Below, one piece after another: positions 1,547 through 48,107 of a DNA stretch of 50,662 nucleotides (its first letter is position 1; each line of letters opens with the position of its first letter). The stretch is taken from contig MQRK01220489.1 of NCBI GenBank assembly GCA_001938485.1, positions 8,755 to 59,416 on the forward strand, written 5' to 3'. The notes beneath the pieces are model-generated. The model was not told the origin of the DNA. It was given only the letters and a program-made list of their open reading frames with translations, and made no database searches. Source of the DNA: Girardia tigrina (lineage: Eukaryota). The position numbers and the translations under genes were made by a program.

Positions 1547-1790
1547 TTATTGTGTTAGTATGCTTGGGGTATGATTGAATTGTTCTGAGTGGGATAAAAA
1601 TATACCTTTACATCTTTTAATATGGCTCAATATCGAACTATTTCTACTCGATTGACTATGTTCAGCAATTCTAGTGCGGAGATGACGACTTGTCTCTCCA
1701 ATGTACAAGGCTTCGCACTTGTCACAAGTGCGCACTTGTCACACAATAAAGTATTTTTTCAAGTTCAGCGTCTCGAATGTATATATGAAA
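1547..1790 (-). mobile_element. Penelope-like element GIY-YIG endonuclease fragment
   Basis: CDKCEALYIGETSRHLRTRIAEH matches the PLE Uri/GIY-YIG pattern CxxC-x-YIGET-x-R-x-L-x-R-xx-EH. Confidence 0.8.
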
Positions 1791-9559: not shown

Positions 9560-12500
9560 TTAGGCTGTCCAAAAGTCCTCAGGTGGCCTTTAAAAACACA
9601 TTAATACTTTACCAAATTTAACCAAATTTGGACTGAATATTATTCAGACTGTCATAAATACTGTGTTAAAATTTCAAAGCATAAAATTAAAAAAAAGTAA
9701 AATTTTGTTCTATTAAAGTATTTTAAAAAGTGTAATTTTAAAAGTGCAGCGAATTCAAATCAAGCGGTTTTTAACAATGGAACCAAATAAATGTTGCCAA
9801 CGTTTTTTGTTCTAACTCAAAGTAAAAGAGGATTCTGTGCTTCAGAAATTCTTCAGCAACTTCAGCAGACATGGGAAGTCGCAAATCACCCAGCACTGAA
9901 AACTATTCAACAATGGTTGACTGATTTTAAAAAAAGAAAAGCGGACGTCCTTCGACGATTCATCAAGAAGTGGCAGGCCGTCATTAATAGACGATGAAAA
10001 GATTAAAGCAGTCAAAGAAGTGATTGATCAAGCTCCAAATGCGTCTTTGCGTTATTTTGAAAATGAACTTTCTTTAGGTAAAAATACAGTCCACAAAATT
10101 TTGCGTGAAAAACTTCAATACAAAAAAGTTTATTCTGTTTGGGTCCCTCACGAACTTTCTGCTGCTAATAAACAACAACGCATTAACACTGCAAAGCATA
10201 TACGCCATGTAGTTTCACAGATGGGTGATGAAGAATATTCCAACATAGCGATTAAATATGAGACATGGGTCTTTTTCCAAGGTAGAGGAAAGAAAGAAGA
10301 TCACAAAGTTTGGATTCCTTCTAATTCTGTTCCACCAAAAGTGATAAAGCCATCGCCAATGACTGATAAAAAATCTCATGTTTTCGTAACCTTTACCTGC
10401 AACAAACGTTTTAATGTAAAAGCACTGCCATATGGTACCAAGATTGATTCCGAGGCGTATGTGAACTTTGTTCATGACACCGGTGAAAAATGGCGGAACT
10501 TAGATCTAACAGCATCAAGCTAAAGGAACTTAAGTGGTGGCATGATAATGCAAGATGTCATTCTAGCAAAGAAACAACTCTTTTTTGAAAGAAGAAAAAT
10601 TGACAAAAATTATCAATCCGCCCTATAGTCCAGATTTTAATCTTTGTGACAGATTCTTGTTTTCAAAAATGAAGAAAAGTTTTAAAAATCATGTTTTCAA
10701 ATCACATGAAGAAATTGAAGAAGCTTGTAAATTCTTTTTTAATTCTTTATCAACAGAAACATTAAAAAATCAACTAGATAAACTTTTTAACTATTGTCAG
10801 TTGGTTATTGACAACAATGGTGAATATGTTGTTGCTTAAGAAATTTTAAAATATTTTTTTAAATAAATTTTTAAATTCGCTGCATCTAATTTTTTGTTGG
10901 TTAATAATATTATTTTTTTGATAAGTTTCAAATTTTATGCTTTGAAATTTTAACACAGTATTTGTGACAGTCTGAATAATATTCATTCCAAATTTGGTTA
11001 AATTTGGTAAAATATTAGTGTGTTTTTAAAGGCCACCTGAGGATTTTTGGGACAGCCTAAGTATATATATATATATCCATGGAATTTAGAAACCTATTTT
11101 TGAAGGCCTTCTACTCAATCGATTTTCTTTAAACTTTGTACACTTACTCATTCTCGATGACAATAAATGATTATGTAAAAATTTGAGCGAAAAAAACTTA
11201 AGATTCCAAAATGGGAAAAAACGAAAACTTCGAAGTTCCCGAACAATATTTGTGAGGGATATTTAAAATTGTTTGAACGTGTAAATGTATGGATGTTGTA
11301 TGTTGAATTTAGAATGGTGATTCTCCCACCCAGATGGAAAGTGGTATTTTTTTATTAAATTTAAAGTGATTGACTATTCAAACATAATTAAAATAATCAT
11401 TTAATAAGTTCATATTTTTAATTTCACAATTAAAATTAAGTTTAATAATTTTTAGTAAAATTTAAATTAAATGCATTTTTAATAATTTGATGACATTTTT
11501 ATTATTTTGGGATTTATTTTGAGAAATTGTAAAATTTATTATTTTTTAATTAATATTTTTTAGAGGTTAAATATTTAAAAAAAATAACTTTGAAAAATTG
11601 TTTGAATAATCATGATTAAAAACAGAAATAAGAATACCAATTAGAAGGATGGCTAACGTTGAAAGACTTTCTGAGAGTTGTAATGATTCTAAATGTGATT
11701 GCAATAAAAATTCAAACGAGACTTATCTAAATGTTCTTAATAAAATTAATTGCATGATATCTACTTACAAACTATAAGTAGTTTATATTAATTTTTAGTG
11801 TGTTTTTTTAATTAAAATTTTTTAAATATTAAAATCTTTGTTGGTAAAGTAGAGTTCTGTCTGCATAAAGAATGGGTATAAAAATTTAATTTTTTGATTT
11901 ACTATTTTAAAATATTGCTACCATTTATAATAAATAGAAACAAATTAAAAAAATCAAATAATAATAAAACAATAAAGTTGCTAAAGATGATCAAAGGTTG
12001 TGATAGAAACATGTCCAAAGTTGATTTAAAAAAAAGACTGACAATAAATTAAAATTTTACAATACCGTATTTCTTTTAATAGAGCGACATGTCGATCTAT
12101 TGTTTCAATGGTGGTCATCATGTCGGTCTAATGGAACATGTCGCTCTAATTTTTCAAATTACGGTGTTCGGAATTTAAATTCCAGTTATTAAATTATCAG
12201 GCATCTCCAGTTCATAGTTTTCTTGCTGTCGCTTTTTGGAAATAAAAAGAATAAAGGACACAAGCTTTTTAATGCATTCCTTTGGTGGCTTTTGGCAAAC
12301 AGTTGTGACACGAATCTGTACAATATTTTGTCGCTCCAGGAATTTGTTCAAGCAGCCCTTTGGCAAACTTCCTTTTCTACTTCTCACGAATAGCTGTTCT
12401 ATGGTTATAGATTTCTCTGGCTTTATCCACCAAACGTCTGTGAGAAACCAATACTTTCTTCTTAATATATTTTTCCTCATATCACACAAATAATTCCTCC

Positions 12501-20074: not shown

Positions 20075-23000
20075 TGCAGTTGTGATTTAGTATCACCTTG
20101 TAAAGCGAATGATTATAAGCATTGGTGACGAAATGTCCTCAACTTATTCTCAAACTTTAAATGGGTATCTTTCTTTAATATTTTTGTCGAAGATATACGT
20201 AGTATAAAAGTGCTCAGTGGGCCATTTTTGGTAAGTAGAACTGGCGATGTTGGATGAACCAAATATCCGGTTAAGGTACCTAACATTATCCAGTTGCAAG
20301 AAACAACAGTGAAGAAGACCCATCAAAAGTAGTCAAGAGTTTTCTTCTGGTCGAAAAATGTTTCACTGTGAAAGTAGTAAATGACAAGTAAGAACTGGTT
20401 CATAGAAAAGTTTGAAATTAAGGTCTAGAGGAGATAGATTAACCAAATGGAGCCGCGATATCTGTTGATAGAACCGTGGAGCTTCATCTAAATAAATTGG
20501 AAATTAAGGAGTGGAAATCTCCACCTGTTAGGGTGAAGTTGATTGTGTTTAGTCTCCTAAAAACCCATATCTCATAAAAAATGTGTCATGTTTAGCATCT
20601 TTTTGGATTCCAAAAAAGTATTTGATCATTTTCCAGAAAGAATCACTCAACAAATGTTCTAAACCATGGTGATACATTAAAAAAATGTAAGTTTGCATTG
20701 GAACTACATTGAAAAACAAAACTTCGAAGGAATTCTTGGTATTCAACAAGTTTTTAAAGATGACTTCTTATAAACCACACTTGATTAATACTTGACAAAA
20801 AAATTTAATATTTTTAAACATTCTATTTTTGATTGATGATTTTTGAATCATAAAAATGAAACATTATACGGATCACAACTTATGGCCACCAAAAGTAATG
20901 GTATTTGTCGACCCCAGGAAAGATTATAACCAAATTCTAAACGGATGATCCACTTTATATTGGAGAATCCATAAACCAGATCTTATGGTATTTGTAGTGG
21001 TCACCTTTGTAAAAAATTTAGGAAATTAATTTTTACATAAATATTTATACATATAAATTAAATATATTAAAATTACCATATCAATTATCTATAACACAAA
21101 TGAAAACAATTTGTTTATTCAAATTACTTTTTGGTGTAAATTTGAATTTAAAATAAATTTTTCCTTCGATCGTTCCTTTTATTGTCAATGAAGTTGAACT
21201 TTCCGTTGAGTCATTTCCCACACAACAGTATTATTAGAAATAGTATTTACAAATTATAATTTCTCTGACCTTAATTAGATTTTAAGAAGATCTTTAATAA
21301 AATTTTTACAAACAATCAAGTCTTATTTGAAGAATTATATTTCTTTAAATTATTAGTTACATTAAATGGTATTTTTATATAAATATTTGGTAAAATAAAA
21401 CTTGTTTAATACTGTGAGGGAAAATTTGGAATGTTGTAAGTTTGCTGTTTAGATTTGCGACTCTCCTACTCAGATGGGATTGATATGTTTATTGACTGAT
21501 TATTTGAATCTAATGATATTAATTTTAAGTACTAAATAATTAAAGTTTGATAATTATGAATTTTAATAATATTTTTAGTAAACGATTTTAACTTATTAAA
21601 TGTAATATATTTTAAAAATTAATGTTCATTTAATAAATTACCTAATACCTTATATCCAATAAAATTTAAGAAATTAATATTAAAAATCTCCCATTCATTG
21701 TTTTTTTTTAGATTTGAATACAGAAACAAAAACTATATCAATCAAAGAAAGACGCTCTCTGAAAATTGTTGTGAAGAATCTGTTTGTGTTGTCAATAAAT
21801 GATAGCATTTGAATTGTGATGTTGTTAATAAATACCATATTTTATCTGACAAGAGGATCTCTTCTTATACATAGAAGAAACAAATAGTCACTTTCGAACG
21901 AAAATTGCAGAACAAACCATATCAAGTAGAAAACGCTCAATTTTGAATCACATTGGATATGTCATGAAACATATAGAAACATACAAGAGAATAATTTTCG
22001 GGTTTCAATTAGCAATTTTTATAACAAATATGACAGGATAAAAACTGAAACACTGGTAATAAAGTAAAAAAAACTTGTTTAAACGTGCAAAGTGATCCAT
22101 CAAATCATATTAGGATATTTTGATGAAAGACTAAGGTATAATGGTCATATGGTAGTGCTGCTCAACGGTTTAGAATCATAAGGACAAAATTAAAGTAGGA
22201 CTTCAATGTTCGTACTTGATAGAAAGATTCCCTAAACAAGTCATTAAAAAATGCATTTCAAGATATTTCCTTTTTAACAGAAATCTAAAATAATAATCAA
22301 TATAAACTATATAAGAATGTAAAGGAAAAATATTTGTTTAGACGAAAGAGTGTAAAATAAAGAGTAAATAATTGTAGAGCCAGACAAACAAATTAATGAG
22401 CAATTAATATGTAATAGGAAGTTCCAAACCAATTTGTGTTGTTATACAAGAGATATTATTAATATAAAATCATAAAAACCTGGGGATTTTGAGATCTTTG
22501 ATTTGGTCTCCAGAATTATTTTGCCATCGCTCCCGACGACTGGAAGAGTAAATTGCTCAAAGAAAATGACCTGGTTTTCTTCGAGACCAAAGTAATTGTT
22601 TTGCTCAAAGTAATATTTGGTTGCCGTCTTCGTGCAATCCGATGTCATAATATACCTAAGGTAGTGAGCATATAATGAAATCTTCTAAACGAATATGAAA
22701 TATACATACAATAATCTATGATTAATGGTACTCGTAAATATATAAATGTCAACATAGTCATTAAGATTGTATACACAATCAGTACAAAATAAAATCGTTT
22801 CAAGACAAATTTGTGAATAGAGACAACTCATGTAGAAGTAGTCTTACGGATGGAAAAACGTATAACGTATAGAGTGACGTAGAACCATACAGTGAAACAA
22901 CTGTTACAAACTTCTTATGTGTATAGAAGAACAAACTGAAACAAAAAACGAATACTTTTAATGTTTTCAAATTAACGCAAATTAATTAATATTATAAAGA

Positions 23001-26000
23001 ATTGTTAAACTAATTATCATTTGTTTTTTAAACCAATATCGGATGCATAATTTCGACACGAAGTGAACTCTTAAATGGTGTATTCCAACAAACAGCATAT
23101 GCAAATACCTAATTATTCCACCCACAATTCTGCCAAATTTGATATCGAACGAGAATAATTTATCCATTTCCACCCCAAAACAAAATTTAGTCATTATATT
23201 TTGTGCACTTTGCATAGAAAATAAGCAATTTTCTGACATTTATCCATGGCTTCTGCAACGATGGATTCTGTGATTTCCATTCTCTGACATTTCTTTTCTC
23301 AAATATTTTTCTTTAAATTCTTAAGGATTTATATTCTTTAGAAATATTAGGTACCCGCAACTCTATTGAAACTTAGAACAATATTATTTAATAAAAAACG
23401 GACACAAGAAATCATATAAATTGTTCGATAAAATATGCCCTGATTTTTACAACGTTTTTATTAGCTTGCTTTCTTGTCTGTTTGTCTGTCTGGAACCAAT
23501 CTTACGATTGATTTTTCGACCACTTTCAGTCATCCAATTGAGCTGAATTGTTTTATACAGGCTTGCTTCCGATGACAATACAATATTTTAAAAAAAATTT
23601 TGAAAAAAAATAATTTTTTCTAATTTTTTTTGCAAAAAAACACTTACGATTATCTACAAATTTATACACTGTATTAAATAGCAATCTTTTCGTTTATTTT
23701 CATGAATGAAGTTTTATACAGGCATATTTTATTTTTTATACACTTCTTGTTGGGATTTTTCCTTCCTTTTTACCACGTTTTTATTAGCTTGCTTTCTTGT
23801 CTGTCTGGAACAAATCTTGCGATTGATTTTTCGACCACTTTCAGTCATCCGATTGAGCTGAATTTTTTTATACAGGCTTGCTTCCGATGACAATACAATT
23901 GGATAAAAAAAATTTGAAAAAAAATATTTTTTTCTAATTTTTTTGCAAAAAAGCACTTACGATTATCTACAAATTTATACACTGTATTAAATAGCAATCT
24001 TTTCGTTTATTTTCATGAATGAAGTTTTATACAGGCTTGCTTCCGATGACAATACANNNNNNNNNNNNNNNNNNNNNNNNNNNNNNNNNNNNNNNNNNNN
24101 NNNNNNGAAAAAAAATTCCTAAATGATAACTAAAAATAGTTAAATAATATTATTAATAAAAAAAATTTTTTATAAAAACAACCACGTTTTTCAAGCATTA
24201 CCAATGCACTAAAAGGAGGAAAATATTTTTTTTCTAGACATGTGAGAAATTTTATACCTAACCAAAAAGGGGCATAGAAATGATCGATTGTTACTAAAAA
24301 GTAGTAAAGAGGAAATAGCAGTTACTAATAGCAGTAATTCAGAAATCCGCCCCACGTTTTCGGTTAGGTATAAAATTTCTCACATGTCTAGAAAAAAATT
24401 ATTTTCCTCCTTTAAGTGCATTGGTAATGCTTGAAAAACGTGGTTGTTTTTATAAAAAAAATTTTTTATTAATAATATTATTATCATATAGGAATACTTT
24501 ACATCCAAATATTGTTTTCGCAGAGGAGTTGGAAAAGAATGTTTTATAACGCTTTTAGATTTGTTAATTGAAAAGAAGAGGTAGTCAATTATGAGACTGA
24601 GATGTATGGAAAGAAAACGGATATTGGTTTATACACTGCTCATAAAAGTTAAAAGGGTTTTTTACTTGGTCTTTGTCTTCATTATATGCAAAAGCTGATG
24701 CTAGCAAAGATAAGTTAACTGAACTTTTGCATAAAATTGGCTATTTAACATAGTTTCTTAAAAGATTAATTAATGAAATAAATAAATAAATTCAAGTAAA
24801 AAAGAATTGGAGAAAAAGTGAATCAAAACCTTATTAACGACATTGTGATTATTCCTCATTCATAAACTTGTGAAATATTCAACTTTATTTTAGAATCAAT
24901 CGTCAATACAACTTTAACCTAAAAAATATATGCAAATCTTGTAAGATTACAAAGATTTTTTGTAATTATAAGGGGTCAGTTTAAATTTTCGATTCGCTGA
25001 ATAATTTTTAATTTAAAAATTTTACAAAAATTAAATAATAAAAACAGAGTTTAAAATCAAAAAAAAATTTAAAGTTGATATATTTCAATTGAAAGTTTTA
25101 AAATAAAAATTTTAAAAGAAATAATACAATAAAAAAAGTTTTTGCGTAAATTTTTATATCAAGCTGCTACAAAAGTTTTTACGAAATTAAATAGTTTTTT
25201 TCAAATTAATTTTAAAATTAGATATTTATATAAATGTCAAAATTAGTTTTATTGTGTTTAGAATATTTTTTAAAGACTTAGTGTAAATAAAATTTTCAAC
25301 AAAAAAAATATTTTCAAAATTTTATAAGTTGATTGCATCTTATTTAAATGAAATAAATTAATTTTATATGTAATAAAAAAATTATAAAAGCATTCTAAAA
25401 ATAGTAAAAAAAGTTTTAATTAAAAAGAAAAGTTCAAAAATATTTTATCAAGTATAATAAATTATTTTTAAAGTTTTTATTTAATGGAATAAATTAATTT
25501 TATTTGTCATATAATTTTAAAAATGCATTTTAAAAATAATAAAAATTTGAAATAGTAAAAAGTCAAAAATAAGTTATGAAATATAATAAATTATTTTTAA
25601 AGTTTAAAATGTTTTTTTTACAAATTGAAAGTAAAATAAAATTTATGAGACGAGACGAAAATTTTAATTAGCGAAAATTTGTTTGAAAATTGGGAGTTGA
25701 GATATTAATAAATTTTGTAAAGTTAAATTATGACTTCTGAAATTGATAATAATGAAAGTGGCATAAACGCTACCTACAGTAATAAATACCGAACTATATT
25801 TGTAGTAAGGGTAATACCACATAAATCGGAGAGACGTCTCATTACCTCAGTAAAAATCCAGGAGCAAAGTAGAATGCTTGAAATAAAGGTGGCCGTATGA
25901 ATAAAGTTTGTAGATCGGATTCGAAAATAACCAATTTTAAAATACTATGCAGTAATTTCAAAAAGTATTGAGGAACAATCGTGATGTATTATTGATTAAA

Positions 26001-29000
26001 TTACTTAATAAATCAATTAATGTAAAAAACAAATCTTTCTTCCTTTTTTGAAAGTATATATTAGTTATTATCTAATTTGATTACATAATATTCCTTTTAA
26101 TATATAATACCCACTACATTGTTAATTGTCTGAGAATGGCAATGGATAGTCCAAGGAATAACAGGATTTAAAACATAATTTAATCATTTTAACACATGAT
26201 TTAATCTTTTTAACAAATAAATTAATCTTTTTAACAAATAAATTAATCATTTTAACAAATAACTTAATCCTCGCGTACATTGCTATAAATGCAAATGTAT
26301 AAGTTTTAATTAACCTAAAATGACTATTCCAAATCACAAAAGGCAACTTTCTCAGGAATCACGAATCAAAATTATTGATTGGTTGGAATAGTCATTTTAG
26401 AGTAATTAAAACTTATACATTTGTATTTATAGCAATGTACTCGAAGATTAATTTATTTGTTAAAATGATTAATTTACTTGTTAAAAAGATTAATTTATTT
26501 GTTAAAAAGATTAAATCATGTGTTAAAATGATTAAATTGTGTTAAACCCTGTATATCGATATAAATTTAATAAATTTTACCTAGTGGCGTTTTTGATTAC
26601 AATATTAAACTAAACTACCGTTGACTTTTATGTTTTTCATCAAAAGTAATCTAGTTGCTTATTCAATTTGATAACCATTAACCCTACAATGCGCCGTGAT
26701 TCATATTCGAATCAACCATATTTTACCTCAATATCTTTTAATCACGTGATATTCTTTGAGTGTTTACATACTGTGAACCAAAAACATTGTCTATGGAATG
26801 ATAACTGCCCATAAAGTCATAGATGCAATATATTTTGTCAACAAAAATGACAGTTCAGTTTGTAATACTAATATTTTTTTTATGATAATTAAAAAAATTG
26901 CGCATTGTAGGGTTAAAAGATGATATTATTATCAATAAAAATGCCACCACCGACGATAATTATTTGGCACTATTTCTTGACAGTAATAATTGTTTCTTAT
27001 AATTTACAAGAGACAGTCATTGTCGTTTAATGTTTATAAGGTAACCTTAAAGAATATTTAAATGAATCATCTATAGACCCTGAAGGTAGACTAATAAACT
27101 AGTTCAAAATCTATGTTGAGTGAGAATATATGAACACTCTTGATCAAAGGAATATGTTCAACATTGATAACAACAATGTCGGACCTTCTCACTTGGGGAA
27201 TTTTTAAATACAAATATTTTTCTAATACTCATTTAACTTGACTGTCTGATTTCATACGTGTATTTAAGTACCTTAAATGTGAAAAATTACCATTTATTAA
27301 ATTAGTAAAGATTGTCGACATTTATTTAATATTATTTTGTTATTAACTGCTTTAGTTGTCATAATTCTTAATACTCATTAGTAATACAACAATTTGATAT
27401 AACTCAATTAAAAATGTCATCCATATTTTACACAATCGTGTTCAACAACTTTTAATATGAACTTAAAATATAAATTTAAAGCTCTTATTTATTCTTCTAT
27501 TTATATTTAAAATTGTTTTCTTTACTCTTGACACAAGTAATTGATAGCATCTTCAAAGATTCCATAGCAAATCATATATTAAAATGCTAATCATAATCCA
27601 TGACTTTCGTGTCGACTTTTCAATCCTTTCTTCTGTAGAACTTTTTCCTCTTTCAGAGTTTTGAATATGTAAATTATATTTATCATATTATTTAAACAGA
27701 ATTTCAATTATTAACTAAAACAATTTAAAAAACAGTGGTAAATGATTCAAATACAAAATTAAGAACGTCAATTAAATTTTGAATTTTTAAATGGCGTTCT
27801 TAATTTTAATAAAAATATTTGTTAATTTATACTAAAATATATATTAAATATTTATATTTTAAATAAGTTGCAAAATTTTGGTTGTTGTTTAAACGTTATT
27901 GATTTGCTTTTAGGAGAAATTCGAAAAGTAAAAAGAATCAAGTTTTCGAGTCTTGTTCATTTTTATTTGAAACAAATTGAAAACATGTTTGTGAAAGCCC
28001 AAAAGCAAATATAACCCTGTTAATTGAAATGACAAATTTAGATTTAAATGTCAGTAGTTAGGGAGTAGTAGTAATTTGAGGATGGAGATCAGTTAAAATA
28101 GTAAATACGACTGTTTCGATTGTTCGGCCGGAATTAAAAGATCTTATTAAAATTAGGATTACATTCATGGCCAATACACAGATTTTTGAAACTATTCGAA
28201 TACAACAGTCTCTTTGGAGTCGAATTACTTTTGTCTCAGAGACTTCGTTGACCGGCGAGGATTCAGCGACAATAGCTGAGAGAATAGCGGAGGCACCTGT
28301 AATGTCTCTTAATGAACGGCAATCTTACGATAAACAAGTATTTTAATTTTATCCAGAAACTTCCATGTGTTATTTTTATGCAGTCTTTCTATTTCTCTTT
28401 CACCTCTTTAAAATCTATCCATTAATCTATTTATTATTAAATAGAAACATATTCATCTTGAAATAATATAGACCAGTGTTTCCCAAAGTGGGGCGTACGC
28501 CCCACCGGGGGGGGGGAAATTCATTTTAGGGGACATTTTAAAATTTCCTGCTACTGGATTTGATGAAGACAGTTTACCATGATTTAAATTAATACTAAGC
28601 AACTTTTAACTTAATTCAAATAAAAATAGAAATTAATAAACATATAATTTAAAACTATTTATTGTCTATTGAAAATATGATATGCACTAAAAATTCCGTT
28701 CAATCAAAAACAAATTAAATGCAAGATAATTTCTATTGTCCATATTCTGCCAATTAGATTTGACACATTTGACGTTACTAAGAGAAACAAAAAAATTTAT
28801 TTAACATATATCGTCTGCTCGGTGGGCGTTTTTGTTTATACTCATAATTTTTTGAGTAAGTTGGGGTTTATTTTTATTCCTTTAGATTTTATAAAGATAA
28901 AAAATTAATGTTTTAAACAAAAATTGTTTGCAATTGGTTGACGTAATCATTGTCTATATTATAGACAAAAGTGTTACAAAACATTCAAATTTTCTGTGCA

Positions 29001-32000
29001 AATATCAATTATAATAATTATTATAAAGCAACAATATCTAAATTAAAACTTAATGAAACATTTGTACTGAATCAATGGAATTAGTGAAGCTTGAATAAGG
29101 TTCATTCAAAGAGTGACATTCACTGGCCATTGTGTTATCAAGGATTTGATAAAATAAAACGTAACTTCAAATTAAGTAAAATATCTTTCGGATTTCACGT
29201 AATTCTCTAACGTCAGAAGATGTATCGATGAGTCTCAATGAGTTTACCTAAGAGAGATTCGAAGAAGACGTTTAGGAAGCTTTAAAAGCAAATCCAAACA
29301 ATAATTACGGACATATTTGGGCTTGAAAGTAACCAACTGTAAAATATTATGCAGTAATTATTCGGTGATGTCTATCGAGACAGCAGATAAATCTCGGGGA
29401 TCTGTAAATATAAATTAAAAAACTTTGGGCACAAATTGAGAGCAGATGACCAACAAGACAAGTCACGTAGAAAATAATTATGATTTCAGGTAACAACCAA
29501 ATCTAACATTTGAACACAAACGTAATTTAGTGTATTAGTGTGAGAACTTTGTACATTTACTCACATCCCATGGATATTATCGCGAGTAAACGGCTTACTT
29601 TCCACAGTAAGACGGAAACTTCAGAGGAGTACGAGACAATCAAATGAATCTGGAAGGGAGAAATACAAATGGGGAAAAAGNNNNNNNNNNNNNNNNNNNN
29701 NNNNNNNNNNNNNNNNNNNNNNNNNNNNNNNNNNNNNNNNNNNNNNNNNNNNNNNNNNNNNNNNNNNNNNNNNNNNNNNNNNNNNNNNNNNNNNNNNNNN
29801 NNNNNNNNNNNNNNNNNNNNNNNNNNNNNNNNNNNNNNNNNNNNNNNNNNNNNNNNNNNNNNNNNNNNNNNNNNNNNNNNNNNNNNNNNNNNNNNNNNNN
29901 NNNNNNNNNNNNNNNNNNNNNNNNNNNNNNNNNNNNNNNNNNNNNNNNNNNNNNNNNNNNNNNNNNNNNNNNNNNNNNNNNNNNNNNNNNNNNNNNNNNN
30001 NNNNNNNNNNNNNNNNNNNNNNNNNNNNNNNNNNNNNNNNNNNNNNNNNNNNNNNNNNNNNNNNNNNNNNNNNNNNNNNNNNNNNNNNNNNNNNNNNNNN
30101 NNNNNNNNNNNNNNNNNNNNNNNNNNNNNNNNNNNNNNNNNNNNNNNNNNNNNNNNNNNNNNNNNNNNNNNNNNNNNNNNNNNNNNNNNNNNNNNNNNNN
30201 NNNNNNNNNNNNNNNNNNNNNNNNNNNNNNNNNNNNNNNNNNNNNNNNNNNNNNNNNNNNNNNNNNNNNNNNNNNNNNNNNNNNNNNNNNNNNNNNNNNN
30301 NNNNNNNNNNNNNNNNNNNNNNNNNNNNNNNNNNNNNNNNNNNNNNNNNNNNNNNNNNNNNNNNNNNNNNNNNNNNNNNNNNNNNNNNNNNNNNNNNNNN
30401 NNNNNNNNNNNNNNNNNNNNNNNNNNNNNNNNNNNNNNNNNNNNNNNNNNNNNNNNNNNNNNNNNNNNNAACTATCCGACCCCGTAGGAGGCCTATCGGG
30501 GGGCTGCTAGTGATTCTTTAGTTTGGGTGGACCCTCTAAAGAGCCTAAAGGCTCAATACCATTCGAAAGAGATGGGAGGCCCACATTTACTCTAGCATCT
30601 ACATAACTAAATTGAACGATTGTCTTTTACTATCTCTGAGTCGCGTCTTCTTCTGCTTATTTATTCTACATTGATATTATAACAAAAAAAGTTTTGCGAT
30701 TTTATTTATTTATTAATGAGTTTAGAAGTTATTGGAAGGAGAAGAAAAAAATATTTTCACACTAAATAAGAATGGTATTAATGATAAATAATAGTTTGAA
30801 GAATACAATAAATTTTCTTTTCTTTTGTCAAATGTTTTATAATCAGTTAAATGATTTTTTATGAATAAATATGCATGACCATCTTTCAATCTCGGGATAC
30901 CGAAGTAAGAATTCCAAATAGTTCTCCTAAAAAAAGACTGTCTATTTGTTCTTCATGTTTACAAACAAATAAATCAAGGCGCTTTGTCGATAATGCGGTA
31001 TTGGAATGGGGAGGACTTACTAATTGATACCCAACAATCCCTTGAGGGGAACATAATTTATTAAGAGATAATAAAGTTGGGAAGTTTGATTAAGCGTCTA
31101 ATCAGATTTCTCAACTCCAGGACAAAAAATATATATCAGGATTGATAATTACTCTAGGACACTTTTCAAGATATTATATATTACAACGATACTAGAATTA
31201 TTTTATTGTATCATATTCAATAAATGAAGTAGAATAGGGGCTTTAAGCAAAAAACAAATAAAAACTCCACTTATTTTGGAAACTTATTCAGGACGAAATC
31301 TCAAATTATCTTTAAAAGATAGAGTTATGACAAGGACGAACATTTTGAAAAGACAAACAGTTTGAAATATAAAATTCTAATCAGAAGTAAAGGTCATTTG
31401 AAATTATTTAGTAAAAAGAATTCAGAATAACAAAAAATAAAAAAAGACTACAAAATAATTGAGAAGAATTTTGGGAAAATTAAATATTAAAATTGAAAAA
31501 CAATCGTTCAGGTTTAAAGTCCATAGAATTTAAATAAAAGTGTTTCTCCAAACAAAATTCAATACTAGTTGTTTAAATATTCAGACAGCAATTCGGAAAT
31601 TTGAAAATTGATATTATTTGAAGATTCGTCATTGCATGTTCTATTAAATCAAATTTGAATAAGTGTGTGATGGAATTTTGTTTTCAACCAAGTGATGTTT
31701 CCACTACATCTAACAGATAGCATTGAAAATTGATGAACTCTTAGATAAGCTTCGATATTGGATACTGTATCACAACTTACAGCCATAATTAATTGGCAAT
31801 TTCTAGTCCGAAAGGGAGTTCAAGAAAATCTAATAAACAAGTCGTCCTTACAAAAAAAGTGTACGAAAACAGTATGCCAACGGAGTGGGACAAGTCTTAA
31901 TTAAATATAGATTGTAAAGAGAAGAAAAAAAAGTATAAATGACAAATAAATAAACCAAAGTTAAAATGTTTTAAAAACAATGTTATATTTTTCGTAACTT

Positions 32001-33553
32001 CTTAACTGTTTCCGAATATTTTTATTCTGCTTTGATTTATTAGCTTGTCCATCAACTAACATATACTATTATTTGTACCTTTATTTTCTTCTCTTTCTTA
32101 AGAAAACAAGCGATGCTAGAATGTAATATATCACATTTTTGATTTAATCTTATATACCAACCTTTTGCTCATTTGAATGTTCTAGACTCATTAAAAAATT
32201 CTATTATATACATGGTTGTAAAGTAAGTTTTGACAGTCATAAATTAATATATAGTTTCGCATAATGATGTATGTAGTAGTGACATTCAAGAAATAGCGAT
32301 ATTTAAATTTGTATTTTACTCGTCAAAAGATAAAATAAAGATAACTTAGCATTTGATGATGAAACAACCAACGAATACACCTGATCGCGATAGGTAGCTA
32401 AATAAAAAACTTCGATTTGCTCGAGAAAAACGTTTCAGACGATCATCTTTTGATTCGAATATCCAAATATAAAATCAATTTCATATGTAGAATTTTCTTT
32501 ACCAATGATTATTTCTCGCGTAGCCATTCTGCCGATTGTAATTCAAATGGTGAAGCGATATCTTCACTAATAACACACCGTTTCACACATCCGATCAATC
32601 CGTCCAAAAAAATCACGCCATCAGTTTCACTGTCTTATTCTCCCGGCCTGACACCATCGGACTTCTATTTTTTATTCCCACTGAAATATGCGATTAACGG
32701 AAAGAATTATTCATCTGCAGAAATTCAAGGAGAAGTGGATTATTGGGTTGCCATGTAGCCATAGAATTTCTTTAATTTTCCTATCATACTTCGAGTATCA
32801 TGGTACCACTGTTAACTGAGAACTTCTATTTTGGTTGAATAAATCTCTTATACAGGACAAAACTGCAACATTGCAACGCTGTACGCCCCATTTTTTATCG
32901 AAAACATTGGGTTGTTTACATCACCATCTTCTAATTATCCCTCACAGGGTTTTCTTTATAGCCATTTTTTTCAGATGTACATCCAAAAATTCAGCTATTT
33001 ATAGGTAAAGCACACTGCTATTCCACCCACTCTCTCTTCCTCTCGCACATACACGCTCGTACACAAGGTCCTTTATAATTGTATACTTATTTAATAAGTA
33101 TAAGACATTCTTTTGTTCTTAACCCTTTAAATCCCGTGTGCATGTGTTATGTAACAATTTTTGAGTAAAAATAAATGTTATACTGTACACCCAGCTGGAA
33201 ACCTTAAAAAAAACCTTGATTCATTATCATATTTTCAAAGTATTTTAAAAAATTTGAAAATTTTTCAAGAAAAATTGAAAATTTTTCTTCCATTCTAAGA
33301 TCAATTTGGAAGACTTTCGTCATCAATTTTTAAAAATGCCAATATTAAACATATTTGTATTATTTGTTCCAAACAGTCTTTCTTACAACACCCGATCAAT
33401 TCTAGAGTGCCACATCTTTTGAACGAATGACGAATACACAAAATGAATAGAAAAATTAAGATTTTAAGACATTTGTGGCGATTTGACCGTAAACGATATT
33501 TTATTTTAATTTCGAATGTATTTTTCCATTCTTTTTATTAGCTTACTTTCTAT

Positions 33554-33589
<36 letters not shown>

Positions 33590-36500
33590 GTATCCATGGA
33601 ATTTAGAAATATATTTTAGAATGCCTTCTACCTAATCAATTTTCTCCAATCTTTGCACAATCACTCATTCTTGATTACAATAAATGATTATGTAAAAATT
33701 GATCGAAAAAACTTTTTAAGATCCCAAAATGGGAAAAAATAGAAAATTTGGAGATCCCGAACAATATTACGAGGGTAAGTGGAAATACTTATATGCGGGT
33801 GTGCGCGTGTGTGTGCATCTTACAGAGGGACAGATGGCGTGGTGGCGTGATGTACTTACCAGCCAATAGAAATCGAGCAAAAGTGGCATTGGTCCATGCA
33901 ACATGTGAGCAGCATAGAGGAAACTGTCATAGACAGTGTAACACATGGAAAACGCAGTACGTTCTCAGCGTGCCATCATCTTTTTCTTTTGGAAAGAGGA
34001 TACTCCATTGTCTGACATTGTGCACCGCTTATCAAATGTGTTTCAAGGAAGAGCCCTGCAAAAGTCTTCCGTCTACAATTAGATGCATCAATTCGAAAAT
34101 GGACGTGAATTCTTGGACGACGAAATTCTTTGACAGTGGCATGAAGGCATTAGTGAAGCGTTGGAATAAGTGCATTCGCATTTCTGGTGAGTATCTTGAA
34201 AAGTTTGACAGTGATGAGGATGATTAATGACATTATATTCCTTCAATAAATGCTTTCTTGTGGTGTCGTCTCCCTTTTTCCCACTTACTTTCGGAACGCC
34301 CCTCGTAATTGCAAGATATCTACTTATAAATTATAAGTAGTTTATATTAATTTTTAATGTGTTTTTTTAATAAATTTTAAAATCCTTGTTGGCAAAGTAG
34401 AGAGTTCTGTCTGCATAAAGAATGGATATAAAAATTTAATTTTTTGCTTTACTAGTTTTTACTAAATCTATCCTTGACGTGTAAATATTATTCGGTATTT
34501 ATTTATTAAAGTACTTATTAGCATAATAATAGATGGGAATAAAATATTTTTATTATAAATAAAAATAACAAAATATAAATTATAAAATTTGGGGAATGTA
34601 ATTTCTATTTATTGTTAATATTCCTTTGAATGAGCACTGAGACATGAATATGATATTACAACAATTATTCGTCAGACAATAAATGCCCATCAACACATGA
34701 ATCATTTGAACCATCTCAATCACTGTTTTTTTACAAATGAGTAAATTAAATTGACTCATTCACGCAATAAAGTTGATAAAGGTTGACCTATTTATGTGAA
34801 TTTCATAGACTTTAGAGCAATGTGCTAAGGGTTGTTATCATTATTAATCATTAATTTGGTCATGAATCAGGTTAAGTTATCGTAAGACAGACAATATAAC
34901 GTACCATGTGATAGGTACCACTTGCTCAAACCGCCTGTACGCAAGGTGCTGCAGTCTCAATATGCGTTCAGCCTGCAACTGAAAGAGAGACTTGTCTGAT
35001 GGCAAGCCGACTTTGTACATGCCTTTCGGATAGTTGACTCCAAGTCTGGTTCCTGCTCCCCCAGCCATGAGAATTGCGCAATATTCGCCTCTTGAAATGT
35101 ACTCCAAACCTTAAAATAACCATATTTAAAATCATTCTTACTAGTGTTTTTGTGATGTCAAAAATTATAATACGTTTGTTTTTAAATGACGAATTGCTTG
35201 AAACTAAATATATTTTTTATTCGGTGTTAATAAATCAACATTGGAATGAATTTTCAGATCAATTGAGGATGTTATCGTTTTTACTTTTATGCTTACAATA
35301 TTATCGGATAAAGTAATAAAATACAAAAACGATAAACATGCTTTCCATGTTGATGTCCATTACAATTCGTACAGCTTCAAGCCTGATTTTCATGCTTTGT
35401 GCAATTATCTTTGTATATTAAATGTATCTAAGACGTCATTTATCGAACCTCCGACACTTCCTCGATTACAAGATGAGCAAAGATATATCAGTAATGGATA
35501 AAGGTCGAACACGTATTTTTTAGATTTTAAAAACTTTAATAATAAAATTAACAAATGATAGAAGAATGGAAACAATTGAGTAGAAAAAGATACTGATAAC
35601 TTAGTTCCTGTATAAAAATTATTAAATAATTTACATAACTAAAAAAATAATAAAGTCAAAAATATATCTACTAGCAAAAATTTGTGAAAAAAATGTTCTC
35701 AAAATGCATAGAATAATGTTTATCTGTGTTGTAACAATAATTTTAAGTAAACCGAGGCGAATATTTTTAATTTTGTGGCCCCCAGCTCATGTCACAAAAT
35801 ATTAAGACAGAAGCATTTTAGAAGGTCCTGGAACGCAGATAGTACCTTCATACTGTTAGTCCAACTGGGGATCGTCACAGTACTTTTCAACATGATAACA
35901 TGCATCATCACAATATCAGCCATACACCAGATTAGGATCTATATCCTTGTAAGTGGATTCCTAGCCTACTGGTAATACAATTTTCTGTCGGCTAGCTCTC
36001 AGACGCTTTCGCAAAGAGACAGACATAAACCCTCATTTTAGTTTCCCAGGCTCGCACAAGTTATTAATGTAACATTTATAACATAATGTTATAAGGAGGT
36101 AAATTTACTCTTGACTACAAGTATAAAAAAGTCAGGAAACGTTTCATTGAGATAATGACTGACCGGCCTTATTGAAAATAAAAGTCATCTGCATCAGGCA
36201 GTTATTGTAAGTGCAGAACAACTTGATTCATTAGGATTCTAGATACTTATTAGTATGACTGTTCCAAAAAATTACAGGTCCTAAAATACTCATGTAGAAG
36301 AAATCAGAAAAAAATAAAGAAAATGTACTCAGAAATTTCTTCTACATGAGTATTTTAGGACCCGTAATTTTATGGAACAGTCATACGAATAAGTATCTTG
36401 AATCCTAATGAATCAAGTTGTTCTGTACTTACANNNNNNNNNNNNNNNNNNNNNNNNNNNNNNNNNNNNNNNNNNNNNNNNNNNNNNNNNNNNNNNNNNN

Positions 36501-39500
36501 NNNNNNNNNNNNNNNNNNNNNNNNNNNNNNNNNNNNNNNNNNNNNNNNNNNNNNNNNNNNNNTTGTGAATGGTGTTTATTGTGTGTTGTTTGGTATGTTG
36601 TTTTAGGATTTTGTTTCTCCTACCAAGATGGAAGATTGATATTTTAAATGTTTTAAAACGTCGGGTTGTTTAATCAAGTATTAAAATTTAAATAATCACT
36701 TTAAAATTAAACTAATATTTCATAAATAATATTTTAATAATATTTTCTTAAAATAAATAAAAAATATTTCAAATTTCAAGTATAAATTATTTTTGTAATA
36801 ATTAAATTGTAATTTAAATTTGTTTGAATAATAAGACGTTAAATAATATTAGTAAAGATTATCAATCAAGAACGATGACGAGCTACGCAAGTTTTACAGA
36901 GAATTGTTCTAGTGACAATTCAAATTGTGATATAAATAAATGTAAAGAAAACCCAATTAATGTTCTTAATAATAATAACAATAATAATAGTAACAACAAA
37001 AATAGTAATAATACAAAGATCATTCCAAGTGATAAAATGGTATTTTAAAAGGACTTTGCATATGATAATACACGTGTCAAAAACATTTTCACACGGAGGG
37101 GGATCATGACGCAATCTCTGAAAAATATTAATCATTATTTATAATGCTCAAAATCACCATTCTTGTTAAATAAAAAACGTTTTTTGAGATAAAATTATCA
37201 TTTGATTCAATGTGTTCAAGTCTCGCCTACAATCACAAATAAATGAGTCCATGATGGCCATGTGTTACTACAAACAAATTCTGATTTGGACACATCCAAA
37301 TAAGAGCACATTTACCGAAATATTATTTATTAATTTATAGGAAATAAAGATTTTAAACTTAAAAAATATTATTATTATATTAATTGAATCAGTTCAAAAC
37401 GTAAGTTATTCCCATCCAAATGTCTGCTCCATAAATACTGTTACAAATATAATATTAATTGAAACTTTTTCGGACTTTAAAAATGTTAACTTAATAAAGT
37501 AAAATAATAAAATAAATCCTAACAATAATCTAAATATTCAAAATCGTATTAAAATTATATATAAAACTAGGAAAAATCATTTCTTACCAATTTCATTATA
37601 CATCTCCAATTGTTCTGGAGTGCTGTCGTTCCAACTGCCACAAACCTCTGCAGGGGGTGGCTCCAAATCGTCATCCACAATTTCTTTTCGATTCAATGCC
37701 GAAATCTATTAATTTATGTTATTTTATTTAAAGTTTTAGAGAAAGATTTTCATTACTCTACAAACTTCAAATTCCAAATAACAACAAAACAATAATCAAA
37801 CAAAACTGATATTTTTAATATAAAATATCCTGGAAATAAACGACTAAATAAAACATCAAAACACAGTAAATGATAATAAATGTTTCTTTTATATTTATGA
37901 AAATATTTACCAAAAATAATTATGAAAAAAGGAAAATCTTAACTTGTCAATTGTCTGAAGATTGAATTTAATACTTCGTCGTAAAAGAATTATTTTTTCA
38001 ATTGAAAATTTTGAGCTTTTAAGACAGGTATTTATACTAACTAAAAGTCAAACACTTCAATACCTCAACAAAGCGACTTATTTATAAATATTTGCTATTG
38101 TTTGAGCTCATTCTTCATAGTAAATAATTAATTTTAATGATAATATGTACTTAAAATCTTTTATCACCAAACGAGGTCTATTCAAAAAAGTCTATTCAAT
38201 ACCTAATTTAGGTAAACTAAAAATTAATTGGAAACTTTGCGAAACCTTTGCCCGATGATCATATTTTCGAAAAATCATTAACTAAAATTATAGGTTGATG
38301 ATAAAGTTCGTATGACGTGTTAAGACAACGTTACGACCAGAAGAAAAAGCAACTCAAGTACCAATCGTCGATCCAAATGATGCTTCGATAGGAGAGTTAG
38401 AAGCGAGTCCTTTAGAAACCCATCTGCAATACCGCCTTATAGATCTAACTGTGAGAAGAACCTTCAGATGCTCGTTTCGCGGCTGTGTAAAGTCCACGTA
38501 CACAGCCAAAGGGATGCAGAATCATGGGACTACTATCCATGACTGGTCGTTTCTGACTGGATTGCCAAAGCATGCGTGGAAGCGAAAGGCTGACGTCCCT
38601 GTAGGAGGCCTATTGAAGACCTTATATACTCATTTGGTTTGGGTGGACCATCTAAAGAGCCTATAGGCTCAATACCATTCTTGAAAGAGATGGGAGGCCC
38701 GCGACGTGTTAAAATAATGCTATTGGGTTTATTTTTATTTTTAGATGTCTAGTTATAAAATCTCAAATTTTGAGATTTAAGAAAGAATTCGATTTACAAA
38801 AACATATGATATTACCAAATTCGAAAACTTGAAGATACTTACCAGATGGTTGTGATCATTGATAATATTTATTTTAAATTTTAAATTGCACAGTAAATCA
38901 TTCTTTTAACATTTGCAAGAATTTTTTCTAAGTATATTGTTGTGTACCACAACATTTTCCTTTGTATAAAACAAATTTTCTTTCTTTCAAATAATCTCAC
39001 AAATATAACTTCAAATAAAACATCAAAAAATCCATTCGTTTCATGTAAAATTAATCTTTTGGTCTGTTGAAAAACTGTTCGTTTTTAATGTATAAAATTA
39101 TTTTTTAATGTATGAAAAAATCATTTCTGTTTAATGAAAAAAAATATTATACTTTGAAAACGATGTTGTTTTATTTTATTAACTAATTAAATACATGATT
39201 GAACAAGCGTTCGTTTTTTGTCAAATACTATAAACAATATCTTATCAATGATTGCTTGAAAAGCATTGCACGAACATGCCGCAAACGGCTACGTCCGATA
39301 AACGGAACGATCGACCCGGTGATCAAATCAACCGACCAACGTATCGGTCCGGTCAAAACCCGGGACGACTCAGGTCGAGTCGATAATCAATTTAATTAAA
39401 TTGCACAATATATATTATATATTTTTTTCATAATGAAAAGCTTTCTTTCATATGGAGTTTCATATGCAGTTGTAGAGTGATAGCTCTCCTGTCCTGAAGG

Positions 39501-44168: not shown

Positions 44169-45318
44169 AGAAGGATATTTTTGAATAATTTTCCTCGGCA
44201 AATAATTTTAGAATATTATATTTTTGTTGAAATTGGAATATGCAAATTTGATTTTCATCAAATCTTTGTTTCTTTTTTATATTTTCATGGAACCAAAAAA
44301 ACTAATGATAAAATTTTAAAAGTCATTGTTTAATTTTTAATGTTTTGTATTATTTTTTAAATTTTTTTTAAATTTCTGATGAAAAGATAAAAATTTTTAC
44401 ATATTTTCTGTACATTTAATTTTGTTTTTAGTATTATTTCAATTATCATTTTAAATATGACCCTTCTTACAAGACCGAAATTTCGGTTAATCTAATGAAT
44501 TATAATTTCCAGTGAATCATTCATTTATTTTGTTCTGTTTTTTGTTTAACTTTGACCTCTCCTGAAGTAATGAAAAAAGGAAGTCTTTTTTAAATAGATA
44601 TGTTTGTAAGTGTTTCAAAATTCACTGTAAAGATTTTATTAAAAAATTATATAATAAAAAATAAACGTTTATAAATATTTTCACAAGTGTTTCTCAAAAT
44701 CCATCACAATACTACCACAAAATTAATGCCCAATAATTTTGGTGATCTTAACATGTTTGATTTTTAAATTTTTGCACTAATATTTACACATTTTTTTAAA
44801 ATTCATACTATTAAAAACAAAAATTTATGCAGGTTTTACATACATTAAATAAGCATTCAAACTAAAATAGTAATTTCAAATTATTATTTTGACACTACAT
44901 AATATAGTAGTAATACATTTACATTTTTTGTTAATATTCTAAGTCTTAGTGGTTTTTGTGTTGTTTATGCTCCTTAACTAACGTATCTACTTTTCCTTTT
45001 ATCAAATTAGTCAAACTAATTCTCATAGTCGGCGCTCCATTAACGAGCCTATTCGATACTTTGTTTTTTATGTCAACTAACGCAGAAAATCTAGTTTCTT
45101 CTATATATGAAGTAGAAAAAGGTAGAAGTATATTTTTTAACTTTTCGTTTTATGTGGTGTATTCTTCCTGATATATAAATTAAAATATTTTTGAAATCTC
45201 TTGTAAAAATTTCAATTTATATAGACTATGGAATTTACATATTATATTAGAATTTAATTTTTCCTTATCGTGTGACCATTTGTATACTGTCCGCGACTCC
45301 CAGTTTAATAATCACTGA

Positions 45319-46536
45319 CTAGAGAACCTTCCGAACCCGCACATCCCGATTTCGATGAAATTTGGTACATATATAGAACTCACCGCGCTGAATAAGATAC
45401 ACTTAGAACCACCTGCTCTTAAAGCCTAGAACTCGAGATATTCGAATTTTTTAGATTTCAAAAATTATTTTGAATTTTATAAAAAGATAAAAAAAAATTA
45501 AATTAAAAAAAGATAAAAAATAAAGGGTGAATTTATTATTTATTCAGCAAAGTCATCACAAAAATGATAATTAATTTAAAAATGATTAAAACAAATTGGT
45601 GATTTGCACCATGAACAAATAAGAAAAGGTATCTCTCCGCATGACAACTGCGAACATGTTAGAGGCACATTATTGAACCAAAAATCTGTAGGATTTTCAA
45701 ACTGTTCATAGTCATCAATATAATCACATTGCTTCACCTAGCGAAGCTGTCGCGGCAGTTTTTCTATATTGCTGTGTTGTTTGTATGTAAGCAAATTTCT
45801 ATGGTAATCAACGTTTATTACACGTTTTTAATTACCTAGGCACCAAAGATGTTCTGTCGTTATCAATACGTTTTGTTTACTAAATTTCATGGAGCTGTTA
45901 TAATCATGACAGTTTGAGGATGGCTTTTGAAGAACAGAATAAGAATTTAAAAATCGCGATGATTCCACCTAAAACTACAGGGATTTGTCAACCTTTGGAT
46001 AGATATTTTTTCGTGTATACAAAAACTATTATCGTAAATTTTCAGATTTTGTGTTACTTCATTCGATTAATGCAAAGCTTCACTTAAGAGATGAAATCAT
46101 CAAAATTCACTCTTTTATTCATAATCAATTTTCATCTCCAAGATATGTCAATATTTGGAAATATGCTTGGTTTTGTTGTGGTTACATTGATGACTATGAA
46201 CAGTTTGTAAATCCTACAGATTTTTGGTTCAATAATGTGCCTCTAACATGTTCGCAGTTGTCATGCGGAGAGATACGTTTTCTTATTTGTTCATGGTGCA
46301 AATCACCACTTTGTTTTAATCCTTTTTACATTGATTATCATTTTTGTGAGGACTTTGTTTTTTTATCTTTTGACATAAAATTCAAAATAATTTTTGAAAT
46401 CTAAAAAAGTCGAATATCTCGAGTTCTAGGCTTTAAGAGCGGGTGGTTTAAAGTTTATCTTATTCAGCGCGGTGAGTTCTATATATGTACCAGATTTCAT
46501 CGAAATCGGGATGTGCGGGTTCGGGAGGTTCCCTAG
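45319..46536 (+). mobile_element. Tc4/Tc5-like (pogo-related) non-autonomous transposon
   Basis: C-TGA|CTAG...CTAG|TGA-G (TNA TSD in a CTNAG target); ~165-bp TIRs; IPPKTTGICQPLD and Cys-rich tail CSWCKSPLCF. Confidence 0.88.
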
Positions 46537-48107
46537 TGAGTTATATGACAATCAAATGATAAATATAAAAAAACGTAATCTAATTGGTAATATGAAAAAG
46601 CCATTTTTTTAAAATATGATTTTTAATTTCAATTTGAAGAATAACTTTTGTCTTGGATAATTTTAATTTAATAATATACTTTAAAAATAAATATTGTTAA
46701 AAGTAATTTAAAATTTTTGAGAAACGTATATAAATTTTATAAAATATAATAAAAAATTTCATTGTTTCATAAATAACTTCCATTATGTCAATAAATTATA
46801 TAAAAGTCTTTTTTCAATAAAATTTATTTTTCTTCGAGAGAAATGAAACAATTTTCCAAAAATTAGAATGAAAACATCACTATTTAAGGAAGCATGTTTA
46901 TCTAAATGAATGATATACAGGTGGACTGGACTATAGAAGAGGTATTTGTTTCGCAACTTTATACTTTTCTTATAAATCAAATCAGAAATAGGTTTAAACA
47001 TAAATTTACAGCTCTAAAGACATCAACAAAAATAGTTATTAAAGATATAATAATATTGAATAAATTATGACTGAGAGGAAGCTTTTATTTCAAAATTGAT
47101 AGCTTAGTTTTCAAATTGGGATCAAGTATTCTTAATCGCGTGAATTTACAAGAAGGATGTTAAAGTGTGAAAATGTATGTATCTCTACTTCAAATACTTT
47201 CCGTTCCTTTTCTTAACAAAATCTTTAAAATCTATTTTTTCCATTAAATAATTTTTTTAATTATAATGAACGAGAAATTATATAATAATTTTATATTCAA
47301 ATAATAAAAAAACGAAAAAAATGTAAAAATTAAATTTAGAACAAGATGTTAAAACAGAACATACATAACAAAAACAATTAATACATTCAATAATGATTCA
47401 TACAATTATTAAAATTGATCAATGATAAAGTTGTTACAAAATGATTTCTTTTCAAATAATCTTAAAAAAATTTGCACAAAATTTGTTATGCAATTATTTT
47501 TTATCTTGATTTAAACAGACAAATGATTAATGATTAATTAATTAATTAATTTATAATAAATAAATAAATAAATTTTCTTGCACACAATAAATGATCAAAT
47601 GATTTTAATTCTTTCTTTTTCTTTTTATATCAATAAAAAAGATCATTTTTATTTGTAAAAAATTAAAAATACTTTCACAATAAAATTTTGAAATTAATCA
47701 ATGTTTCACTTTTGTAAAATTAATAATTCAATTTTATATTGGAAAATGTCGTGCTAAAATTAAAGAAAAAATAATTAAAATAAGTCATCATAGTTAAATT
47801 TTTAATTAAAAATGTTTATCGTTGTAAAATTGAAATAATGGAGAAATATAAATTAAATGTTTTTAGATGATTTTTTATATTATGTTGAAATTCATCAAAT
47901 TGTTATCATTACTATAAATAATTATAAAATAATCTGTCATACTTGAACTCGGCGAACAAAGGGCCAGTCCACTGATCTTACATTAAGACAAGTTTAGTCA
48001 TTCTTAAGAAGATCACATTTTTTGTGAATTTAAAATTAAATTAGTTAAACACAGAATATTTCGAACATATCTAGAATTAATATGTTATATATTTATAGGA
48101 TATATAA

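Follow-up and report, generated by a model that had tools for sequence, protein, structure and literature searches.

What kind of element leaves insertions that are flanked by perfect 10-bp direct repeats, share a right end, differ at the left and carry no poly(A) tail? Two such insertions, here copy 1 and copy 2, lie about 8 kb apart in a stretch of 50,662 nucleotides from Girardia tigrina (contig MQRK01220489.1 of assembly GCA_001938485.1, positions 8,755 to 59,416 of the forward strand; hereafter the window). An earlier reading of the sequence alone took them for a two-copy non-LTR family, possibly of the restriction-like-endonuclease (RLE) type, with a 3′ RNA structure as its recognition signal. 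Both are 5′-truncated copies of two subfamilies, A and B, of one abundant long interspersed element (LINE). The account that we judge probable is that this is a tail-less LINE that has one open reading frame (ORF) and an apurinic-type endonuclease (APE) and likely belongs to the RTE group, and that several of its subfamilies prefer a single base among the GIY-YIG codons of Penelope-like elements, likely because targeted insertion there has recurred.

An abundant LINE and its preferred base

Searches of the animal's own genome with each of the two ends gave 1900 and 1309 first-look candidates, of which 40 were scored each. The best 40 matches are 99-100% identical at the end for copy 1, of the young subfamily A, and 93-95% identical for copy 2, of the older subfamily B. 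Far from a family of two, the genome has 1330 exact A/C/D-type and 223 exact B-type ends, counts that miss mutated copies and are inflated by duplicated contigs (e.g. C122976/C122977). Family copies have one common 3′ end base and scattered 5′ starts, and of 96 copies testable at both junctions, 26 had an exact target site duplication (TSD), 9-14 bp long and no more than 20 nt from the 5′ boundary, as against a mean of 0.18 and a maximum of 2 in swapped-flank controls (n=500). Copy 2 counts as a miss in that test, with 12 extra bases between its TSD and the homology boundary. The genome-wide tally that the sequence-only reading had proposed thus bears out a non-LTR element with a fixed 3′ end, variable 5′ ends and TSDs, while 10 bp is not their fixed length. 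The absence of a tail also stands: neither poly(A) nor a microsatellite was found at family ends, where 0-3 extra bases are all that follows. The TSD starts 0, 1, 2 or 3 bases after the element end in 16, 2, 7 and 1 of the 26 copies, respectively, and the extra bases (A, AA, AC or ACA), which are absent from the target, thus occur in 10 of the 26, nine of the ten being of subfamily B.

Extension in the 5′ direction recovered the autonomous reverse transcriptase (RT) that the sequence-only reading had proposed to look for. Full-length copies, of about 3.8-3.9 kb, have a 5′ motif like the hepatitis delta virus (HDV) ribozyme, one ORF, a 3′ untranslated region of about 72 nt and no tail. In subfamily B three copies begin at a common point some 3.8 kb from their 3′ end, L215 is a full-length subfamily A copy of about 3.9 kb, and in L209, a subfamily C copy, 1122 codons are open before the sequence turns to N. 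The ORF starts about 120-140 nt from the 5′ end; in the copies that served for subfamilies A, B and D its stop is 71-73 nt short of the element end, and those that served for C and E are frameshifted. In it Pfam recognizes an N-terminal apurinic-type endonuclease (just below cut-off in L209, above it in L215), an RT (RVT_1, E 4e-37) and C2H2 fingers, and nothing else, with no match for RNase H; three spaced C2H2 fingers are present C-terminally in all five proteins checked. That the element is a LINE with APE, RT and fingers is practically certain. The APE-RT ORF excludes Penelope, Helitron and DNA transposons without terminal inverted repeats (TIRs) as the identity of the inserts, and a DNA transposon with a 9-11-bp TSD (non-TIR Mutator and the like) is rejected on the variable 5′ ends and an ORF that is an RT. 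As judged from its letters, the 5′ end of full-length copies is a candidate HDV-like ribozyme: they begin at or near the first G of stem P1, which is still paired despite letter changes across subfamilies A, C, D and B. A ribozyme of this class is a nested double pseudoknot that has P1 at its cleavage site and its catalytic C in J4/2.

The same sequence follows many of the LINE ends. Joined to the 11-bp ACATYGGAGAG, the LINE end has 580 exact matches in the genome, where a control has 0. A 20-mer of the target, with 2204 exact genome occurrences, encodes YIGETNR, within a GIY-YIG domain that Pfam places above cut-off. Two proteins, P0121 (90% identity to the ORF of L312) and P0123, carry both RVT_1 and GIY-YIG, and the upstream flank of L262 matches P0123 at 89%; by their predicted domains the hosts are Penelope-like elements, with an RT and then a C-terminal GIY-YIG endonuclease. 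Subfamilies A, C, D and E use the same target base, 40 of 41 distinct end-to-Penelope junctions are in this register, and the LINE lies in the sense of its host. In a sample consisting of the first 83 A/C/D-end rows in contig order, 81 of them fetched, 21 of the 81 are on target by a fuzzy rule with a background of 20 in 97,209 window positions, and two unfetched rows in the list of 580 make this 23 of 83. At off-target A/C/D ends (n=60) the next base is A in 92% and the one after it C in 77%; at B ends (n=76) it is A in 93%, with no fixed base after.

Audit of the 41 distinct junctions left 17 as informative, 24 loci (23, plus L258) ending inside the element. At eleven of the 17 the insert, 449 to 5397 bp long, is flanked left and right by Penelope DNA, and the 5′ ends differ; to these L213 and L274 can be added as further two-sided cases. 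Where the target has diverged, it is duplicated in its own variant (L215, L116 and L213). Different subfamilies are stacked with the 11-mer between them at L259, L260, L266, L270 and L274. At the same Penelope base there is also a non-coding element of 411 bp, HDV-like at its head and LINE-related at its tail (L266:104-514, minus strand; four relatives among the fetched loci, L281, L301, L333 and L224), which is likely a non-autonomous partner of the LINE. It may itself be a LINE target: in tandem copies of subfamily C (L209:2389-2400, L218/L252 and L224) the 11-bp spacer overlaps the start of the partner's ribozyme-like head, and L333, of subfamily D, also ends inside that head. Part of L215 is present in 16 sequencing-run rows of 11 studies. 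The four runs examined, all contigs, cover the element end and the Penelope flank, and their loose junction ends match the empty site and the non-coding partner; among these four no listed piece bridges the junction with 31 letters on each side.

A second recurring 3′ flank (5 of 267 ends; L089, L117, L290, L322 and L337, of subfamilies A and D) reads by eye as a Penelope-like linker between RT and endonuclease, in antisense, and may be a second hotspot or a passenger. A third recurs in three subfamily A copies (L201, L342 and L359) and may be a single duplicated locus.

How the site might be chosen

That the LINE targets the Penelope site as such is highly probable; how it would do so is a separate matter. 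In the mechanism proposed here, a LINE copy inside a Penelope element would be transcribed from its host, with the 5′ HDV-like ribozyme freeing an exact 5′ end. The tail-less RNA would read on into the target, where a Penelope-type hammerhead motif about 420 nt downstream could end it. The protein would bind the conserved 60-nt 3′ structure and nick the bottom strand across from the A that begins ACATCGGAGAG; pairing of the read-through bases with the primer would then make copying begin at the last base of the element. The TSD would come from a second nick at a distance of about 11 nt, rebuilding the site and enabling tandem stacking, and off-target events such as copy 1 would retain just the first 2-4 bases of the match. 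By analogy, R1Bm requires downstream target site in its RNA (PMC7265360), and repeats of Penelope-like elements carry hammerhead motifs (PMC4209133). A minimal hammerhead-like pattern is matched about 420 nt past the LINE end in two of three flanks examined (L262 and L278). The extra A, AA, AC or ACA in 10 of the 26 copies fit copying from RNA that ran past the element end, though nearly all these copies are of subfamily B, which likely lost the site preference. For read-through target RNA standing in place of a tail in target-primed reverse transcription, the odds seem about even.

The alternative that survives best shares the targeting and parts from the proposed mechanism in the priming step only. 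The protein alone would set the site, its endonuclease and zinc fingers reading DNA; the AC would be a cleavage preference and RNA would play no part. The three C2H2 fingers are conserved across the lineage, endonuclease swaps shift specificity in SART1/TRAS1 (PMC7265360), and the TSD offset is 0 in 16 of the 26 copies. However, the non-target extra bases in the other ten, 1-3 in number, are expected from RNA read past the end, with the same reservation about subfamily B, and subfamily B has the fingers yet no targeting. Control by protein alone is a serious contender that nevertheless falls clearly short of even odds.

A number of observations weigh against the account favoured here, in whole or in part. 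About three quarters of the sampled A/C/D ends lie elsewhere, neither window copy is at a Penelope site, and subfamily B is found there at 0 of 76 ends and in 0 of 30 rows (27 distinct flanks). The 24 junction loci of 41 whose contigs end inside the element cannot be judged, Penelope DNA is present only downstream at 6 of the 17 informative junctions, and the duplicated contigs mentioned above inflate the counts. Rfam recognizes no hammerhead in the Penelope flank, where the fold is no better than shuffles and there is the pattern only. With the Rfam HDV models the heads of B, A and D have E values of 0.15, 0.002 and 0.0006, all under the gathering score. The 3′ end is predicted to form a three-way junction of which the best fold of copy 2 differs, and covariation there is weak, its pair count being reached by 42 of 500 shuffles in rows that are related. 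The tree considered below is without a named reference.

Some of these observations are what passenger amplification would produce, i.e. a few chance insertions into Penelope elements multiplied by Penelope retrotransposition or 3′ transduction, the LINE itself having only a weak AC preference. The six junctions lacking upstream Penelope DNA, the shared orientation and the second recurring flank, itself Penelope-like though antisense, are all in keeping with this. Against it, four subfamilies that are 55-72% alike in the compared ORF stretch use one base, as does the non-coding partner, and that several subfamilies should hit one base by chance has a negligible probability; 5′ ends differ at the 11 two-sided junctions, and the TSDs copy each target's variant. 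As the explanation of the whole, passenger amplification is improbable. Repeated targeting is well supported, and passenger amplification probably accounts for part of the 580.

The conserved right end likely serves as a protein-binding handle, by analogy with the 3′ handle of stringent LINEs (PMC3747384), and its structure may be the recognition signal. Over the last 60 nt the five subfamilies are 82-95% identical, compared with 55-72% in the upstream ORF stretch and 32-77% in the 25 nt before the last 60, and so the conservation seen in two copies holds for the family. Of the two hairpins noticed there both can form: the first is paired in all eight rows compared, two non-autonomous rows having both letters of one pair replaced, and subfamily indels fall in the loop of the second. 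Their stability is less telling, since shuffled sequences fold only modestly worse (over the last 63-65 nt z is -1.66 and -2.08, over 100 nt -0.96 and -1.03). Could this end itself be a ribozyme or tRNA-like processing element that makes an exact RNA end? The predicted junction and high conservation invite the thought, but Rfam, taken to E 10, has nothing within the element end and just chance miRNA matches beyond it, and the first bases of the flank join the predicted closing stem. A hammerhead or tRNA-like reading of the junction was rejected by eye, the consensus hammerhead core not being kept. A processing element at this end is very improbable; the ribozyme for which the sequence-only reading had proposed a search has its candidate at the 5′ end instead.

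Finally, an RLE-type LINE is hardly conceivable, for although R2-like elements typically show an end without a tail, TSDs, an HDV-like head and a sequence preference (PMC4640811, PMC6765202), the domain order rules it out, with an N-terminal APE domain, C-terminal fingers and no CCHC motif found by pattern in L209 or P0001, and the best solved relatives are L1 ORF2 (E 1e-28) and then R2 (E 3e-21). LINEs of the RLE type (R2, R4, NeSL, CRE and HERO) lack an APE and have CCHC and the RLE at the C-terminus.

The two copies in the window

Within the window each of the two 10-mers flanking an insert occurs exactly twice, at the places in Table 1, and the chance odds of such a pair at the expected places are about 2e-4 for copy 1 and 7e-5 for copy 2. 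Alignment gives a right end of about 110 nt in common, its first 30 nt or so being coding (PVGGLSG). As GGGAGGCCC ends at 30582 and 38700, the inserts run 0 nt (copy 1) and 2 nt (copy 2) past it, in agreement with what had been read from the letters. The left ends had seemed unrelated; both are homologous to one ORF, at different truncation points. That of copy 1 matches 2908-3025 of a 3910-bp reference cut from L215. Most of its interior is N and comparison rests on its ends, which map 1003 bp apart on L215. Copy 2 has 87.5% identity to P0004 residues 533-628, and a coding element was suspected because it has an open frame with a C2H2 finger. The copies themselves are ordinary dead fragments.

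Table 1. Positions in the window of the two LINE copies, their duplications and their parts
Feature	Position	Strand	Remarks
Left TSD, copy 1 (ACATTTACTC)	29553..29562	+	starts ACAT, as the preferred target does
Copy 1, 5′-truncated LINE, subfamily A, 1020 bp, interior N	29563..30582	+	ends mapped on L215
ORF fragment downstream of RT core	29564..29680	+	97% identity to P0005 residues 385-423
Last ORF codons and stop (PVGGLSGGC*), copy 1	30472..30510	+	
Conserved 3′-terminal 60 nt, copy 1	30523..30582	+	predicted three-way junction
Hairpin 1, GAGCC-N4-GGCTC, copy 1	30541..30554	+	paired in 8/8 rows; non-autonomous partner has one pair changed on both sides
Hairpin 2, CCAT...ATGG, copy 1	30559..30575	+	loop holds subfamily indels
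Right TSD, copy 1	30583..30592	+	abuts element end
Left TSD, copy 2 (GACGTGTTAA)	38314..38323	+	
12 extra bases at 5′ junction of copy 2	38324..38335	+	like element sequence about 20 nt further in
Copy 2, 5′-truncated LINE, older subfamily B	38336..38700	+	
Third C2H2 zinc finger of ORF (CSFRGC...HGTTIH), copy 2	38469..38540	+	
Conserved 3′-terminal 60 nt, copy 2	38641..38700	+	hairpins 38657-38670 and 38675-38693
Two extra bases, GC, before TSD of copy 2	38701..38702	+	AC or AA in other two-base copies
Right TSD, copy 2	38703..38712	+	

Other repeats share the window. Penelope-like GIY-YIG coding fragments are present at 1577-1726 (minus strand) and 21865-22120 (plus strand), and the LINE copies lie outside both. 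Long inverted repeats (99-187 nt, 91-96% complementarity) are found at 45311-46544, 26167-26548, 24143-24482, 9569-11050 and 36206-36433; they are like miniature inverted-repeat transposable elements or foldback elements, and the one at 26 kb has 21-bp tandem units. Outside the window, L212 has a fragment of a different LINE-like ORF (4107-4916, minus strand) beside a subfamily C copy.

Relatives, meaning and known systems

Membership of the RTE group is very probable from the architecture and the motifs. The RT motifs look RTE-like, DUF6451 and the YRGI/GVRQG motifs being marks of that group. In a FastTree tree of 110 RT rows, all unnamed and with 11 of 120 matches left out for short alignment, the lineage falls in a 12-row clade (support 100) whose members have 2-3 fingers, itself inside a 23-row group (support 98) of single-ORF proteins that includes DUF6451 rows; the element is apart from the zf-RVT rows. 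Distant single-ORF relatives with 2-3 C-terminal fingers (P0006, P0007, P0008, P0010, P0015, P0019 and P0021; about 26-32% identity) are in one clade with the lineage. A metagenome scan kept 80 of 258 loci, all distant (22-40% identity). Since none of the 80 has a Penelope GIY-YIG match, the targeting is not extended beyond the lineage; one C2H2-like motif is present in 5 of the 80, and four that were checked have no Rfam match.

What is hit is a catalytic motif, the most conserved one of a rival retroelement, and each insertion there destroys a Penelope endonuclease while host genes are spared; it is likely that one genetic parasite aims at another. Subfamily B has the same domains as A, C, D and E but leaves the site alone, which makes these subfamilies a natural comparison for the source of specificity, be it endonuclease, fingers or RNA flank. 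Gene-writing tools derived from RTE elements insert at random (PMC13708176), and this lends practical interest to a relative that is compact and prefers a site. Another origin of target-specific APE LINEs would be added by an RTE-like lineage that has one ORF and a preferred site, and the lineage's preference for the Penelope nuclease motif is a novel version of a known targeting strategy. The literature search met neither a LINE targeting Penelope nor a target-specific RTE, with Repbase/Dfam and most subscription journals outside its reach, so that the family may already be deposited. The fullest version of the proposal is a third, independent origin of sequence-specific insertion among APE LINEs, outside R1 and Tx1: a one-gene, three-finger RTE-group parasite of Penelope YIG codons that would use host transcription, owe the two ends of its RNA to an HDV ribozyme of its own and a hammerhead of the host, and take read-through target as guide instead of a tail. 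It is offered tentatively, its chances being slightly less than even.

How does the element stand beside known systems? The RTE clade is defined by a single ORF with APE and RT, without ORF1 or RNase H, and this is the arrangement found here; a microsatellite-like 3′ tail, typical though not strictly defining (PMC6007223), is not. Animal RTE TSDs of about 9-14 bp starting with A, a likeness to the present element, are described in the same source, whose families end in (CAA)n, (GTT)n or similar, unlike the element here. The octopus RTE-2_OV (PMC9115989) is similar in having one ORF, about 1100-1200 aa long, that encodes endonuclease, RT and a C2H2 finger, and in its 5′ truncation, but has one finger in place of three spaced ones; a single finger in RTE is known there and called rare. 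HDV-like ribozymes are reported in RTE elements (PMC6765202). RTE-1 is listed as random among gene-writing elements (PMC13708176), in contrast to the sequence preference of the present one.

The Ingi/Vingi/L1Tc elements are alike in 5′ HDV-like ribozyme (a candidate one here), APE, C-terminal C2H2 fingers and, in L1Tc, a TSD of about 12 bp (PMC6765202, PMC2805920). L1Tc, however, has the RNase H that Pfam does not find here, the RT motifs of the present element look RTE-like, and Vingi-1 integrates at random (PMC13708176), whereas the element here is site-preferring.

Target-specific APE LINEs such as R1 and Tx1 are marked by numerous independent insertions that share a single base of a repeat, and this is the pattern here for A, C, D and E, not for B. 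R1 elements have two ORFs, and the two-ORF organization of these target-specific LINEs is not matched by the single ORF here. The R1 clade (R1Bm, SART1, R7) is otherwise alike in APE, site preference and a TSD of fixed length, though R1 targets rDNA or telomeres and the present element, with its RTE-like RT motifs, another retroelement. Tx1L of Xenopus, also a target-specific LINE with an apurinic-type endonuclease, has the DNA transposon Tx1D as its target. Kojima and Jurka (PMC4640811) assign APE-type LINEs that are target-specific to two clades, Tx1 and R1, the former belonging with the L1 group (PMC3747384). Other transposable elements are listed as targets of specific LINEs (PMC8869645, PMC4640811), and non-autonomous R2/R1 hybrid SIDEs with HDV head and LINE tail (PMC3414825) provide a parallel to the 411-bp partner. 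The difference from Tx1 is that the target here is the catalytic motif of the Penelope endonuclease.

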